Virus record (IMG/VR): IMGVR_UViG_3300021254_000020
Coordinates: 128,001 to 192,000 of that record
DNA length: 64,000 nucleotides
From: a virus
Taxonomy: Duplodnaviria > Caudoviricetes
Direction: 5' to 3' (one strand)
The notes under the pieces are model-generated. The model had not been told where the DNA came from. It ran no database searches and saw only the letters and a list, made by a program, of their open reading frames with translations. Position numbers and translations under genes: made by a program. This document shows positions 37,036 to 49,857 of this stretch, piece by piece; position 1 is the first letter of the stretch; the number at the start of each line of letters is the position of its first letter.

Positions 37036-37641
37036 GGAGTAGGTCATAATGACCTACTCCCTATGAGTATGATTTTATGGGTAAACCTTGTGTATATATA
37101 AAAGAGTTATGGATTGCGTTAGCTACCTTATACCGGTTATCCTCTGCTTCAAACTAGAATAGCAGTAACCCTCTTCGAGTAGCACGGAATTGTAATAAGG
37201 ATTTGGTTTATCAATTTGGCGGGTTATCAGATTGGGCTCGTTAAAAATACTACCAGGTATAAAAATAGTTTTATCAGGTTATCAGTTTAGGTACGTATAT
37301 CAATTTAACGAGTTATCAGTTTAGCCCATTTAAGCATCTTTGTATTTATGTGCTTAATTTGATTGAGGAAATCAATGTGACTCATTGTCCCCATATGAAC
37401 GCTCAGAGGGATTCGAACCCTCGTGATCTTTGCGATCGGAAGATTTTCGGTCTTCTGTGTTTAACCACTCCACCACAAGCGTTAACCATTCTGGTTATGT
37501 ATGAACAGCTTAAAAAGCTGGTGCAATCCTATTAGTCTTTTCTATTACCAAGAGGTAAGAGCATGTGGCCATAAGACATCTCGATTGCATTAGGAAAAGG
37601 CCCTAATTTGATTGAGGTTAATTCAGCCTCGTAATCCATAA
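37036..37641 (-). ncRNA. candidate long structured RNA with AAAYUGAUAA repeats and embedded tRNA
   Basis: no credible ORF; about 6 motif copies 37207-37324; 9-bp inverted repeat 37237-45/37304-12; terminator 37036-60. Confidence 0.55.
37398..37482 (-). tRNA. atypical class II (long variable arm) tRNA, anticodon GAA
   Basis: acceptor ACGCTTG/TGAGCGT, D arm GTG-GAGTGGTTAAA-CAC, anticodon arm GAAGA-CCGAAAA-TCTTC, variable arm GATC-GCAAA-GATC, T arm GAGGG-TTCGAAT-CCCTC; no encoded CCA. Confidence 0.85.
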
Positions 37642-39274: not shown

Positions 39275-41542
39275 TTACTCACATTTGCTCCAACCACAAT
39301 TACTGCAAGTCACACACTTTCCTTCAGGAATAAGTGTTTTCTTCCCGCACTCGGGACATACACGTTTAATCGTATCTTCCTCTTCCATATGAGCCTCCCC
39401 AATGTCTTGCTTCTTCATTACCAATTCAATAGCATCAGCAATAGCATTAGAGCAGGAGAGTGATACATCAAGTTCACCATTCCTACGAAGAAGCTGACAA
39501 GCAGGACATTGATTATTTCTCAGCTCATCTAGTACTCTAGTCAGTTTAACACCACTACGGAGTGATAAGGAGATCATACGAGTAATAGTGTTGATATTAG
39601 CCTGGCAACCACCGCTCGCATTAGTGAACACCTCAAAGATGTTCCCATCTTCCGTTTTATTAACTGTAACATACATAGATCTAGCACAGCTAGTACGTAC
39701 TCTCACTGTAGCACCTTCTACGTACTTAGTATTCCTACGACTAGGGGCATCGATACTATCATATGCAGGAACATATCCTTTAGGTACAGCTACCAGAGGC
39801 TCAGAGGTATCCTCATCATCCTTCTTCTTTTCTACACCAAGGATATTACCACGTTCGCATCCATCGACGAATACAGTGATACCTTTAAGCCCTTGTTTCC
39901 ATGCTTCCATATAGATCTCATAGATTTGTTCTTTAGTAGCATCATGGGGAAGATTAACAGTAGAACTGATCGCATTATCTACATACTCCTGAACTATGGC
40001 TTGTAGACGTACGCGATCCAAGTAAGGTACTTCATGAGACTCTATCAGGAACGGGAATCTCTTCTTAGCTTCTTCTACGCTAATACCTTCACAGTGATGG
40101 AATTTAAGAAGATCCTCTACACCACGAGCATATACCAAGAAGGTCTTTCCACTATCCTCCATGGAATGAGATGTACGTTCATAGGCGATCTTAAACATAG
40201 GTTCAATACCACCAGTATACTTACCAGCAAACAAGCTGATAGTACCAGTAGGAGCGATAGACAGAAGAGAACCATTACGAATACCATACTTCTTTATATC
40301 CCCATGCAGTTCAGGATAGGCTTGTATTTGAATAGACTTAAGAGTCTTATCAGCATCGAACTTCTTGAATGGTCCTTTAAGTTTAGCTAACTCAATACTA
40401 GTAATAAGAGCCTGCTTCATGAACTCATCCATTACGTCACTCATTAAGTGACGAGACTCTTCAGAACCATACTTGATTCCTAATGCTACGAAAGCATCAG
40501 CCATACCAAATATACCTAAACCAATGGAACGCCAATCATCAATAACCTGTTTGTTGAGTTCCAATGGTTGCATGTCTCTGCCGTAGTCTAATACTTCATC
40601 CAACATGCGTACTGCATAATGAACAGTATATTTCAAACGATCATAGTTGATATGAGCATGATCAGTAAACTTATCGTCTACCATTTCATAGAGATTAACC
40701 GAACCAAGATTACAAGAATTTCCTCTAGTACCAAAGTATTCGGCACATGGGTTTGATATATCTATTGTGTATTCAGGATATCCGCTCAGTAAATGAAAAC
40801 TACGCACACGCTCTATAAAAATAAGGCCAGGGTCCCCAAAACGGCGAGAGCACTCGCAGAATTCTTCGAAGAATTCTCTTGCATTGATTACGTTAGAGAT
40901 CTTTCCTGTCTCAGGAGAGTCAAAATGTAACTCAAAATCTCTATTTTCTTCTACCGCCTTCATAAATTTGTCAGTGAACTTGATACTGATATTCATAAAA
41001 GAGAGTTTCTCATTATTCTGCTTTACTCTGAGGTACTCATAGATATCTGGATGTTCGCAAGATAACCCGACCATAATAGCCGCCCTACGCCCGTTCTGTC
41101 CAATAACCTGACCTACTGTATCGAAGACATTAAGAAATGATACTGCTCCGCTGCTCTTTAGTGCTGAATTATTTACTCTTGCTCCTTTAGGACGAAGTGT
41201 ATCTATAGAAATACCAACACCTCCACCATAGGAGAAGATACGTGCCATATCCCTAGCAGTGTCAAATATAGATTCTATATTATCTTTGGGGATATTACCA
41301 AGAACATAGCAGTTGCTTGTACTTAGTTTACGTTTCCCCTTGTAGCCCGCCCCAAATAGAGTTCTACCTCCAGGTAAGAACCATGCCTTATCTAGTAGAG
41401 TATATGCATCATCCTTGATTTCATCACTAAAGATGCTTGCCAGTCTGGGAATGAACTCTTCTGGTTTCTCTCCTTCATGTAGATATTTACGAGTCATGAT
41501 TCCCATAGAGATTTCATTGTCATACCATTTCTTTTCACTCAT
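39275..41542 (-). CDS. nrdJ: class II (adenosylcobalamin-dependent) ribonucleotide reductase
   Basis: FLPGGR, SNCYV, GGGVG, RRAA, NPCAE, SCNLGS, IAPTGTIS, AISSTVN, C-terminal TSC/CxxC domain and zinc ribbon; no NrdB nearby. Confidence 0.92.
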   Translation of the reverse strand: MSEKKWYDNEISMGIMTRKYLHEGEKPEEFIPRLASIFSDEIKDDAYTLLDKAWFLPGGRTLFGAGYKGKRKLSTSNCYVLGNIPKDNIESIFDTARDMARIFSYGGGVGISIDTLRPKGARVNNSALKSSGAVSFLNVFDTVGQVIGQNGRRAAIMVGLSCEHPDIYEYLRVKQNNEKLSFMNISIKFTDKFMKAVEENRDFELHFDSPETGKISNVINAREFFEEFCECSRRFGDPGLIFIERVRSFHLLSGYPEYTIDISNPCAEYFGTRGNSCNLGSVNLYEMVDDKFTDHAHINYDRLKYTVHYAVRMLDEVLDYGRDMQPLELNKQVIDDWRSIGLGIFGMADAFVALGIKYGSEESRHLMSDVMDEFMKQALITSIELAKLKGPFKKFDADKTLKSIQIQAYPELHGDIKKYGIRNGSLLSIAPTGTISLFAGKYTGGIEPMFKIAYERTSHSMEDSGKTFLVYARGVEDLLKFHHCEGISVEEAKKRFPFLIESHEVPYLDRVRLQAIVQEYVDNAISSTVNLPHDATKEQIYEIYMEAWKQGLKGITVFVDGCERGNILGVEKKKDDEDTSEPLVAVPKGYVPAYDSIDAPSRRNTKYVEGATVRVRTSCARSMYVTVNKTEDGNIFEVFTNASGGCQANINTITRMISLSLRSGVKLTRVLDELRNNQCPACQLLRRNGELDVSLSCSNAIADAIELVMKKQDIGEAHMEEEDTIKRVCPECGKKTLIPEGKCVTCSNCGWSKCE

Positions 41543-42001: not shown

Positions 42002-42029
42002 CCTAATTGTAGGTTATGAGCCTAAAATA
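42002..42029 (+). repeat. free-standing copy of the intron-end motif
   Basis: CCTAATTGtAGGttatGAGCCTAAAATA matches 46668-46698(-) and 48226-48259(-). Confidence 0.8.
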
Positions 42030-45878: not shown

Positions 45879-46114
45879 TTATCCTACATTCTTATACTTA
45901 GCCTTCAAAGCTTTAATTCTGCCTATCTGATTCTGATTATAACGACGTCTACCCATATGAATAAAGGATTCCAGATTAATTACCGTATCCTTAAACACAT
46001 TTACGTCATTATTAAACAGACCGTCATTACGAGAGATACAGAATGCATTTCTCGGAGAGTAGACAGCCTCACATGCATTATCAAAGGCCTTATTGAGAAG
46101 CAACTTAATATTTA
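45879..46114 (-). CDS. RNA polymerase beta' N-terminal subunit, exon 3
   Basis: C|TA AAT ATT AAG continues (L)NIKLLLNKAF...YSPRNAFCISRNDG after group II 3' end. Confidence 0.85.
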
Positions 46115-46654
46115 ATATGAATAGGTAGAGACCATGATATTATCTCATCTCTTTCCCCTCATTCGAACGCAGCAAGCGACTTTCATCGCACTACGCTTTC
46201 CATCGAGTATTATCCCGACTAGAGACCATTCCTCCATTCCCGTTACAGGAACTTCTTAGGTTCGATCTCCGCTTTTCAGCATAGGTTAAGATGCTTATCT
46301 CCATATGGTTTCGTCATCAATCTAAATCGACCTATACCTTTCTTTCGTTCAGATAGACCTATCATTACATACATATCCTTAGGTGCCTACTTTATCTATA
46401 TATACCTAGATAGTACCTGTAATACTATATGGGTGTTCTCAACTGCCACCTTACTAACCCACAATACATATAGATTTTAATAGTAGATTCGTGTCCCTCA
46501 CCATAGATATCTTATTGACTCCCGGTTTGTTCAACCGACTTTACCGAGCTACTAACCCTGATCTTTACAATCAACGCTAGTCGGAGATTAGAGGAGATAC
46601 TTCTAGGCGTTACCCTATCATTTTATCTCTCGGTCTACCCACACAAAATCGCAC
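46115..46654 (-). mobile_element. ORF-less group II intron (IIB-like), 540 nt
   Basis: 5' GTGCG; EBS1 GGCAGT (46447-42) pairs exon ATTGCC; domain V AGCGTAGTGCGAT-GAAA-GTCGCTTGCTGCGTT; domain VI with bulged A 46122, 8 nt from terminal AT; removal restores frame. Confidence 0.92.
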
Positions 46655-46670
46655 GGCAATCTCCATCATA
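46655..46670 (-). CDS. RNA polymerase beta' 16-nt micro-exon (YDGDC)
   Basis: TAT GAT GGA GAT TGC C supplies the missing part of the ADYDGD catalytic motif. Confidence 0.88.
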
Positions 46671-46716
46671 TTTTAGGCTCACGCGCCGCAATTAGGAATT
46701 TAATGCGACACGATTT

Positions 46717-47830
46717 ATGAACGTACATTACTAAGACTACAGTATTATTATAAACACATCATAATCTAAGGTTGTTATTACCCTTTTCGGTAAACCCTCT
46801 ATATAATTCAGGATAGTTCTTGGTTATATTTTTAAAGGTTCTTCCAGTTCTTATAAAGCTCAAACTAGTTATGAACTTCTTATCATATGGAACTCCAAGA
46901 GCATTGGCTATCTGCATAGAATCCCTTCCAGCTACCATCATCTGGCATATTCTATCAACCGTAGAACCATCCCAAGTGTATCCCGATATATCATAATCCT
47001 TAGATATAGATTTCCATCGTTTTCCTGTTCTAATATCAGAAACCAGAGCAGCAAAATTCATATTATATGGAACTCCAACAATCTTAGCTATATCTGGTGA
47101 TTCCATACCTTGAGTAAGACATTGACAAATCGTATGAATCATCTTATATTTTTCAGCATTTTTGTTTACTGATACTATATGATAATTCTTTGCAATATCT
47201 TTCCAAGCAGTACCATTTCTGATATTGCTAATTAGAACTATCCATCGTCTATCATAAGGTACACCAAATTTTTCTGCTACTTGTTTAGAACTAATATTTG
47301 GATCCTCTAGCATTTGACAAATAGCATGCTTCATCTCTAATGGGAAATTAAAGATATGATCTCTATTTACATCATCGCTCAAAGAATACAACACATTATT
47401 CTGATAATCGGTCCACATAAGATTATCGAGTTTATTATGATATTTTACCTCATCTTTATGATGAACTAACTGACCATAATATGGATCCGATGTATCAGTA
47501 AGAAAAGTAATGGCTACCATTCTATGAACAAGCATCATAGCATCTTCTAATCTGCATCTAAGATATCCTTCCGGTAAAGATACTGGGTATATTTTCATCT
47601 GAGTAACCCTATCATATACGTTTCCGTAATTACTAACCAGATATCTCGGATTTAGTGGGAATATCCTAAATTCCTCATTAAGATAATATCCTAAAGTAAG
47701 AGCTCCATTAGAATAATCACTGGCTTTGTATTTATCTTGATTTTCTGCACCTGGTATAAATTCTTCCATTATATCACCTCCTTTACTATATGATTATAAA
47801 TTAACTGTAGTCTTAGTAATGTACGTTCAT
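46717..47830. repeat. 27-bp perfect inverted repeat looping out the HNH ORF
   Basis: ATGAACGTACATTACTAAGACTACAGT 46717-43 and reverse complement 47804-30. Confidence 0.95.
46759..47769 (-). CDS. intron-encoded HNH homing endonuclease with three C-terminal HTH-like repeats
   Basis: YLVSNYG (NUMOD4-like), VHRMVA.TF, VHHKDE...N..DNL.W; 3x ICQ...IA...GVPY......S.IR.G..W/F. Confidence 0.9.
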   Translation of the reverse strand: MEEFIPGAENQDKYKASDYSNGALTLGYYLNEEFRIFPLNPRYLVSNYGNVYDRVTQMKIYPVSLPEGYLRCRLEDAMMLVHRMVAITFLTDTSDPYYGQLVHHKDEVKYHNKLDNLMWTDYQNNVLYSLSDDVNRDHIFNFPLEMKHAICQMLEDPNISSKQVAEKFGVPYDRRWIVLISNIRNGTAWKDIAKNYHIVSVNKNAEKYKMIHTICQCLTQGMESPDIAKIVGVPYNMNFAALVSDIRTGKRWKSISKDYDISGYTWDGSTVDRICQMMVAGRDSMQIANALGVPYDKKFITSLSFIRTGRTFKNITKNYPELYRGFTEKGNNNLRL

Positions 47831-48259
47831 CAACAATTATCTAACCTTTCGGCTACCATAGACTATATCAGTCCCCCAGCATTACCTGGTAGGGTGCTAG
47901 CACTTCGCTACTAGGATCGTCAATCCGTTCGCTACAGGGAGCTGATCCCCTTAGTCGTTGAACCCCTTTCGAGGATGCTGATTGCCGATTTACTTCTATG
48001 CCCTTAGCACAGTCTATCTCTCCCTAGAAGTTGGGTATTCTACAATAGATCTGCTTTTATTTCAGCTTAGGCTATCTTTAGGATTTGTTTCTACTTTCGT
48101 AGCATGCCTACTATATAGACGATGCACCTAAAGCTTTACGATGTTCCAGCAGTTCACTAGCTCTCACTCACATATTACTATATGAGCGGACCATGATTTA
48201 GAAATTGTCTAAATCGCCCTTTTTTGTAATTTAGGCTCGCGCCTTAACAAAATTAGGGG

Positions 48260-49597
48260 GTCAGCCGCAAGTCCACTGAGGACGAATTGATCCAATGAGA
48301 GAACCGCACTGTCTGTATTGACTCCGACTACCCTCTTCCATACTATGGATTCGTAATGGATAGTAGGATTGCGGTTAATCAATACATGGATCTTATCCAT
48401 CTTAATCAGGTTGTTGAGGATATCTAGTACCCTCTGATCAAGCTGCAGTGTAGCATAATACCATTTCTTATATGCCTCAGCATATGTAATATTATAGCTA
48501 CTCTGTATGATATTGATCAATACCTGTTCTAAGAGCAATACGAGACCAGTATAGGGTAACATAACTTCGTCAGACCTCAGTTTACTATCCGGCACAATGA
48601 TAGACCGTTCAGAGAAAGCAGTACGTCCAGATATAGTAGAACGCATTATACCTCTCTTATCTGCTAATATGCGGATAATCTCATCAGAGAGTTCACTTAG
48701 CTTAACCTGCATATCCCAGAGAATCTGATTCTGTAGTTTGGGATTTCTATAGATAGAGAGAGTATCATTATTGAGTTGAGCTCCTAATGATGCTAAGATA
48801 TTAAAGGTAGCATTGGTTTTCTCGAAAGTAAACCGCTTACCTTCTACCTTAGCAATACGAAGCTGGGTGGTATAGATAGGGATAGAATGAGAGAATACAC
48901 AATCTCTATGCTGCATAATGAGATCGTATACATCCTTCTTATTTTTTCTTTTCTTTAAGAAGTATGCCAGTATCTCATCAAACTTCTCATAAAAACCCAT
49001 CATACCAAGGCTCTCATATTTAGAGTCTAATTTACTCTTCTTCTTATATCTACGAGCATTCTTTCTCTTAAAGATTTTTCTATCATATGAACTCATGGGT
49101 TTACCATCAGCATCGAGTTCGATAGCTGGTTCTAATATAGACTCCAAGTTATCTTTTCCGATGATGGAGATGAGTTCTACATAGATAGCAGGATTGATTA
49201 TATGATATTGATCCTTTAAATGGATATATCCAAAGTAGGTGAAATCATCACCTACTAATTTAGCGGGAGTTCCACAATAAGGACAGTAGAAGTTAGGATG
49301 GTCCATCACAGAATTAAATGCTCCTTGCAGATAGCCACAAGCACATTTGTATCTGTGAGAGAATGCTGCTTCATCTCCAAGCTGTCTACCAAACTTAGTA
49401 GAGAAGATAGATGTGTCACTCTTCAAGGATTTTTGAAGAGGTTGCTTTGAATCGATAATGAATGCTTGCCCAACACTCATATCTTTCTCAAACTCATTAT
49501 CAAGATTGAGTATAGACAGTTTAACGAAATAATCATATTCATTATCTCTAGGATAATGAATATTGAGTTTCACGTCTTTCAGGCTATTCTCATCCAT
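48260..49597 (-). CDS. RNA polymerase beta' N-terminal subunit (non-virion type), exon 1
   Basis: CACG...CPYC zinc site, FGYIHL, KRGIMR...GR..FSERSII, INRNPTIH, ends GLAAD; spliced product 529 aa. Confidence 0.92.
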
Positions 49598-49599
49598 AA

Positions 49600-49857
49600 T
49601 TAATCCTCTCTAATAACCCAGTCATTAGCCAACATATCAGCTTGAGAAGCCAACCAACCAAGCTGTACTCCTCTAGTGCCTACGAAAGCTATAGCCTGAT
49701 TACCGATATCCTTATGATCAGCATTGATAATCTCACCACGAGCATTCATGTAAGAGATATTAGTGGCGAGTTCAATGTACTGATCTTTGCCATTCCATCC
49801 CATACGGGATACTCTCTTTCCTTCCTTCATTGCATTGATAGCTTCACCAAAATTCAT
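49600..49857 (-). CDS. Tad2-like (DUF2829) anti-defence nucleotide-sponge protein
   Basis: MNFGEAI.AMKEGKRVSR.GWNGK...WLASQADMLANDW. Confidence 0.85.
   Translation of the reverse strand: MNFGEAINAMKEGKRVSRMGWNGKDQYIELATNISYMNARGEIINADHKDIGNQAIAFVGTRGVQLGWLASQADMLANDWVIRED

Follow-up and report, generated by a model that had tools for sequence, protein, structure and literature searches.

A 16-nt micro-exon between a group I and a group II intron in the catalytic motif of a jumbo phage non-virion RNA polymerase gene

Background

Among the closest described parallels to the locus reported here are the interrupted RNA polymerase (RNAP) genes of Bacillus phage AR9. AR9 g270, encoding the N-terminal subunit of the non-virion RNAP β′ (nvRNAP β′ N), contains a group I intron with the HNH gene g271, and g145, encoding the virion counterpart (vRNAP β′ N), contains a group II and a group I intron within one gene (PMC12350094, Fig. 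5A). An ORF-less group IIB intron in a jumbo phage gene was described in Listeria phage LPJP1, with the reverse transcriptase (RT) encoded in another intron (PMC12350094). Two self-splicing introns flank a 34-nt exon in Coxiella (PMC10136302). Clusters of group I introns occur in phage Twort orf142, with a short 23-nt exon, and in polr2a, the RNAP large subunit gene of Bodo saltans virus (PMC10136302 and PMC5871332, for both viruses jointly). A natural terminal A in place of the ωG was published for the hexacoral mitochondrial ND5-717 group I intron (PMC8146996).

In the locus analyzed here, a 16-nt micro-exon separates a group I from a group II intron. The locus shares with AR9 g270 the orthologous gene and a catalytic motif split by a group I intron with an HNH gene, whereas the AR9 intron lies 9 nt further on and has the canonical U and ωG. 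As in g145, both intron classes are present in one RNAP β′ gene. There, however, the group II intron comes first, the intervening exon has about 185 nt and both introns carry endonucleases, in contrast to the 16-nt exon, the ORF-less group II intron and the A-terminated group I intron found here. LPJP1 also has an ORF-less group IIB intron in a jumbo phage gene and differs by the RT in its other intron, while the present genome has no RVT_1 match and a single group II intron. Twort orf142 and polr2a of Bodo saltans virus hold only group I introns, with no group II neighbor. Both Coxiella introns are group I, lie in rRNA and do not surround a coding micro-exon; we know of no terminal palindrome pair in them. 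The ωG is treated as near-invariant in group I splicing, and the Coxiella L1917 intron is said, with reference to Raghavan et al. 2007, to end in A. The hexacoral intron resembles ours in its natural ωA and its location in an essential protein gene. It differs in being organellar and not a homing element, and we know of no C(-1) or end motif described for it (PMC8146996).

Results

The split RNAP gene

The window is a 64,000-nt stretch of a 266,420-bp virus record, a jumbo phage that comes from animal gut metagenomes according to the run labels. Its other genes include further RNAP subunits, a ligase, a UvsX-like protein and a weak PhuZ match. A 430-aa gene at window positions 54387-55679 matches an RNAP β family.

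Three exons on the minus strand, 49597-48260 (1338 nt), 46670-46655 (16 nt) and 46114-45879 (236 nt), join into 529 aa plus a stop, including LSGLAADYDGDCLNIK. The first-pass annotation, made by a model from the sequence alone, had proposed this gene model, and its coordinates and lengths proved exact. Exon 1, recognized by homology as the N-terminal subunit of the non-virion RNAP β′, has 446 codons, the last of which (GAC) encodes the first catalytic Asp. The micro-exon encodes YDGDC plus one base; its nucleotides 1-6 form the P10 strand of intron 1 and nucleotides 11-16 the IBS1 of intron 2. Exon 3, assigned by the in-frame join and homologue alignment, adds the C-terminal 78 aa and the stop. 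Thus Asp446 closes exon 1, while the other two Mg-binding residues, Asp448 and Asp450, lie on the micro-exon as previously suggested. An in silico join that leaves out the micro-exon runs into a stop at residue 446.

Alignment of the product with phiR1-37 g274, MarsHill, LPJP1 and BpSp is free of gaps across the catalytic loop (DYDGD), which is the placement that the earlier model had to satisfy. It is 60-65% identical over ~520 aa to intronless metagenomic homologues, and every intact homologue shows the same gapless D-x-D-G-D spacing. Exon 1 matches phiR1-37 g274, AR9 g270 and the MarsHill non-virion β′. The best match of an intronless homologue is AR9 nvRNAP β′ (7S00/7S01 chain d, E 2.5e-31), followed by phiKZ gp55-56.1. 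Homology thus extends across the double-psi barrel with the DxDGD motif, as in the AR9/phiKZ-type nvRNAP β′ N. The gene is single-copy, and the sole other intact DFDGD of the genome sits in a different gene. Many database entries of this RNAP family stop right after 'AD', in agreement with the view that the layout is invisible to ORF callers; gene callers overlook exon 2, and the polymerase is then reported as truncated and catalytically dead. Directly upstream of exon 1, an 85-aa Tad2-like gene at 49600-49857 keeps its position in close relatives.

Junctions fixed by natural alleles

Both junctions are confirmed by relatives that precisely lack one of the two introns. In L053/L054, where exon 1 is 95% identical to that of the window, intron 1 is missing and exon 1 runs directly into the 16 nt, followed by the same group II intron, which confirms the exon 1/exon 2 junction. 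L059-L061, in turn, have a relative of intron 1 at the intron 1 site but are free of any group II intron, which confirms the exon 2/exon 3 junction. Neither junction tolerates a one-base slide. Shifted junctions were rejected since sliding either one breaks the motif; likewise, a 5' site at the upstream U would delete Asp446, and a 3' site after UAUG would delete YD. A nested twintron was rejected because a coding exon separates the introns and each is independently absent in relatives. Translational bypass of the T4 gene 60 type was also rejected, as the take-off codon would be GAC, as against AAA before exon 2, and the first stop comes 16 codons later.

Boundaries, intron classes, guide pairings and the independent presence or absence of each intron in close relatives are all read directly from DNA. 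From these data we infer that both introns are removed from the mRNA. In three metatranscriptome contig sets from the same samples there was one match, a 221-nt contig within the group II intron that spans no exon joint. Codon changes between the window and L053 number 61 synonymous and one non-synonymous. Relative to L059, there are 163 synonymous and 35 non-synonymous changes in exon 1 and 16 and 8, respectively, in exons 2-3. The genes that host A-ending introns are therefore under purifying selection, which argues for working splicing.

Intron 1: a group I ribozyme with an HNH gene

Intron 1 (46671..48259, minus strand, as are all features of both introns) is an IA2-like group I intron of 1589 nt, which follows a C and ends in A; it is delimited by its P1-P10 pairings and its precise absence in L053/L054. 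Helices P3, P4, P6, P7 and P8 with the P/Q/R/S elements are present, and 5-6 of the 6 pairs of P3 are kept by covariation in 11 introns of differing sequence. The ribozyme core, P3-P9 with P7.1/P7.2, occupies 47842..48161. Its P7.1 and P7.2 hairpins, folded between P7 and P3 at ~47950-47910, are those of subgroup IA2. The internal guide sequence (48186..48197) has the 6 nt of P10 ahead of the P1 strand, whose G stands opposite C(-1), and it aligns exon 1 directly against exon 2 (P1 5/6, P10 6/6). It covaries with the 3' exon in L059, L069, L073 and L118. The double use of the 16 nt by both introns, already claimed by the first-pass annotation, is upheld, with P10 being a 6-bp helix of UAUGAU with AUCAUG (AUGAU in the earlier reading) that varies in step with the 3' exon in relatives.

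The assignment to two intron classes is supported by these helices with their covarying P3 and by Rfam matches of intron 2 (see below). The Rfam check suggested earlier succeeded for group II and failed for the window copy of group I: RF00028 matched neither intron 1 of the window nor the canonical intron of L092, while the sister intron of L218 scored 58.9 bits (cut-off 50). Since the canonical L092 is likewise missed, RF00028 appears insensitive for these introns.

The HNH homing endonuclease gene (46759..47769, 336 aa; PHROG 59, E 9.5e-31; Atlas HNH_3 clusters at 0.95) encodes three repeated HTH-like units at the C-terminus of the protein. A perfect 27-bp stem (left arm 47804..47830, right arm 46717-46743) loops it out after P9. 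In L059 the HNH gene is placed in P6 and its product is a distant relative with 25% identity, which points to separate gains of the cargo.

Non-canonical ends of intron 1

The most surprising part of this locus, missing from the first-pass annotation, is the combination of non-canonical group I ends with terminal palindromes. Instead of the U·G wobble, the 5' splice site has a C-G pair in the window as well as in L059, L069, L118 and L218; a C(-1) before a group I intron has a precedent in the Williams 2020 preprint. At the 3' end, the ωG is replaced by A in the window and in L055, L057 and L059-L061. The latter are independent assemblies, of which the L057 contig breaks off after 5 nt of the exon. 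G is the last base of all other introns mapped at this site. The G-binding pair in P7 (G-C; GACUA/UAGUC) is the same as in the ωG sisters. Mutants of the Tetrahymena and Anabaena introns lead one to expect that an ωA with an unchanged G-binding pair impairs the second step.

The A-ending introns share 73-93% core identity among themselves and 60-65% with the sisters. They probably have one origin, with the clade comprising three types only and a weak tree support (0.69). Pattern scans of viral and genome contigs, using the end motif and the P7.1-P7.2 of this clade, returned unrelated matches or none and no further A-ending members. A core-less mini-intron forming the 3' tail was rejected since any remainder would still end in A. 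The A-ending introns of the window, L057 and L059 and the G-ending ones of L069, L118 and L218 make natural matched pairs at one site. This set includes ORF-less introns of ~430-550 nt, so ligation after A with a normal G pocket is directly testable.

Intron 2: an ORF-less group II intron

Intron 2 (46115..46654, 540 nt) is a IIB-like group II intron that is precisely absent in L059-L061. Rfam recognizes domain I with RF02004 at E 2.6e-18, and RF00029 exceeds its gathering score on domains V-VI at 46115-46200. The intron begins with GUGCG and ends with AU, consistent with the 5' GUGYG and 3' AY of group IIB; domain V has the AGC triad, and the A that bulges out of domain VI is located 8 nt from the end. 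IBS1 (AUUGCC) pairs 6/6 with EBS1 (GGCAGU, 46442-46447), and the two covary in 6/6 group II introns at two sites, namely the window and five relatives inserted six bases earlier. No covarying segment for EBS2-IBS2 or EBS3-IBS3 was found in the alignment of group II introns, and intron 2 has no ORF of at least 80 aa. ORF-less group II members are known. Because the genome is devoid of RT, any maturase would have to come from the host.

Some details of these introns depart from the usual pattern. The domain V bulge is UU where AY is usual in the window (46175-46200) and in L058. By exon frame, the group II introns of L073 and L123 end in AG and AA, respectively, and not in AY, and that of L123 starts with GGGCG.

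An intron hotspot in the RNAP family

Across ~100 related loci, the AADFDGD codons are an intron hotspot: several adjacent positions hold group I introns, and +10 and +16 are occupied by group II introns. A group I intron, a 10-nt exon and a group II intron follow each other in four other loci (L069, L073, L118 and L218). There, P10 and IBS1 overlap by 2-3 nt, which implies sequential splicing. In the window, P10 (nt 1-6) and IBS1 (nt 11-16) are separate, so that no strict splicing order is required. Micro-exons of 16 and 10 nt thus provide a natural test of two ribozyme classes sharing one short exon, with their pairings overlapping or not. The first-pass annotation regarded such a layout as unusual. 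This claim is weakened by the four 10-nt-exon loci within the family and by AR9 g145, which has both classes in one gene. A literature search covering few subscription journals found no paper on a phage micro-exon with a group I intron on one side and a group II intron on the other.

Two or three group I cores are found in this gene stretch in L113, L115, L128 and L181, where some exons have only a few bases. By our own reading, this gene of Staphylococcus phage Machias (MW349128; L006:2790-3170) has a 6-nt micro-exon (Ala-Asp) flanked on both sides by ORF-less group I introns. The second of these introns occupies the site of window intron 1 and has canonical ends, and the record annotates the N-terminal piece only. 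Three consecutive opposite-strand neighbor genes of ~410 aa were noted at L069:312-4128, two of them with weak HNH matches, while the 430-aa gene of the window matches an RNAP β family, as mentioned above.

Terminal palindromes

The two ends of intron 1 carry a quasi-palindromic motif, CCTAATT-N-GGC-spacer-GCCTAAA. The 5' copy (48230..48257) lies inside the enlarged P1 loop, and the A-run of the 3' copy (46671..46696) supplies the last intron base. The motif occurs four times in the genome and in none of 20 Markov-3 simulated genomes. Two of the four copies are intergenic, at 42002..42029 on the plus strand of the window and at about 46969-46991 of G000:C1. Beyond this genome, a relative with an intronless gene has a copy, and an intergenic copy was located at L202:1501-1523. 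Free copies occur on either strand, in the intergenic regions of tandem, convergent and divergent gene pairs, and end in the same A-run as the intron 3' copy. The flanks are constant, but the 6-nt spacer flips with the lineage: GCGTGA in some, its reverse complement in others. The 3' copy is found in every A-ending intron and is missing from the ωG sisters L069, L118, L191 and L218. The 5' copy is also present in ωG sisters, is retained across introns with only ~61-73% core identity, and is degenerate in L059 despite the terminal A of that intron. Both copies have the same spacer orientation in the window and in L057.

Discussion

We consider it probable that two independent mobile introns homed into the most conserved codons of the only nvRNAP β′ N gene of this phage and that both are spliced from the mRNA. 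Splicing of intron 1 would begin with a free guanosine in the normal P7 pocket and a cut after C(-1), which is held by the C-G pair in P1. The freed exon would then attack after the terminal A. With the ωG missing, this step would be positioned mainly by the 6-bp P10, and it is probably slower or helped by a protein. Intron 2 is expected to splice as a lariat via EBS1-IBS1 and the bulged A, either unaided or with a host maturase. The HNH gene would drive the homing of intron 1 and may bring intron 2 along by co-conversion. The layout would then be a selfish pile-up rather than a regulatory switch, as argued from the presence and absence of introns in near-identical phages.

The palindromes can be explained at the level of DNA or RNA. 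Fixed flanks, a flipping spacer, free copies with the same A-run and a 3' copy confined to A-ending introns lead us to read the motif, tentatively and with slightly less than even confidence, as a strand-independent site in DNA or a mini mobile element that came to lie at the 3' end, supplying the new terminus and displacing the ωG. Alternatively, the end motifs might aid splicing as RNA, with a dimeric phage or host protein or hairpin pairing bringing the 3' end to the guide and replacing ωG recognition. This would account for the 3' copy in all A-ending introns, for the equal spacer orientation in the window and L057 and for the 5' copy that persists while cores diverge to ~61-73% identity. 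Such a role seems unlikely, however, when the spacer flips between lineages, free copies occur in every gene arrangement on either strand, a degenerate 5' copy accompanies a terminal A in L059 and the ωG sisters have the 5' copy as well. If true, it would represent an undescribed route of 3' splice-site selection for group I introns, in which an essential active-site exon is ligated after A.

Explanations that depart from splicing at the mapped sites, or from a selfish origin, fare worse. Both the window and L059 have a G separated from exon 2 by exactly 9 nt (at -10), and its use as the ωG would keep both the frame and canonical chemistry, adding three residues after Asp446. The two Gs, however, stand at non-homologous positions, the guide pairs with the exon start rather than with the bases that would be inserted, and the Mg site, gapless in every intact homologue, should not survive an insertion; we regard this as extremely improbable. 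Equally improbable is an excision from the DNA itself, with intron 1 being an IStron-like element or one that a recombinase cuts out between two direct-repeat sites. The repeats at both ends do have an arm-spacer-arm shape, loosely like tyrosine-recombinase or integron sites, but their recombination would leave the catalytic motif with an insert of 31-33 nt. The ribozyme core is complete and shows covariation, and the genome gave no match to Phage_integrase, Y1_Tnp or Resolvase. Membership in the IStron, IS200-IS605 or IS607 elements was rejected on the same absence of Y1_Tnp and Resolvase, on the HNH cargo in place of TnpA/TnpB, and on the terminal A, since IStrons end in G (PMC4227781). It is also very unlikely that both introns form a regulatory checkpoint with a fixed splicing order that times the active non-virion RNAP. 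Splicing pairings involve 12 of the 16 micro-exon bases, and skipping of exon 2 yields a truncated 446-aa product, as such a checkpoint would have it; yet among close relatives either intron may occur alone or together with the other, a different group II intron may sit at +10, or introns may be lacking altogether, and P10 and IBS1 do not overlap in the window. A promoter scan showed no excess over shuffles.

Two further features of the window lie outside the split gene. A tRNA with a GAA (Phe) anticodon at 37397-37482 has a long variable arm of the kind seen more typically in tRNAs for Leu, Ser or Tyr. The gene at 39275-41542 encodes a ribonucleotide reductase large subunit with a TSCPD domain.
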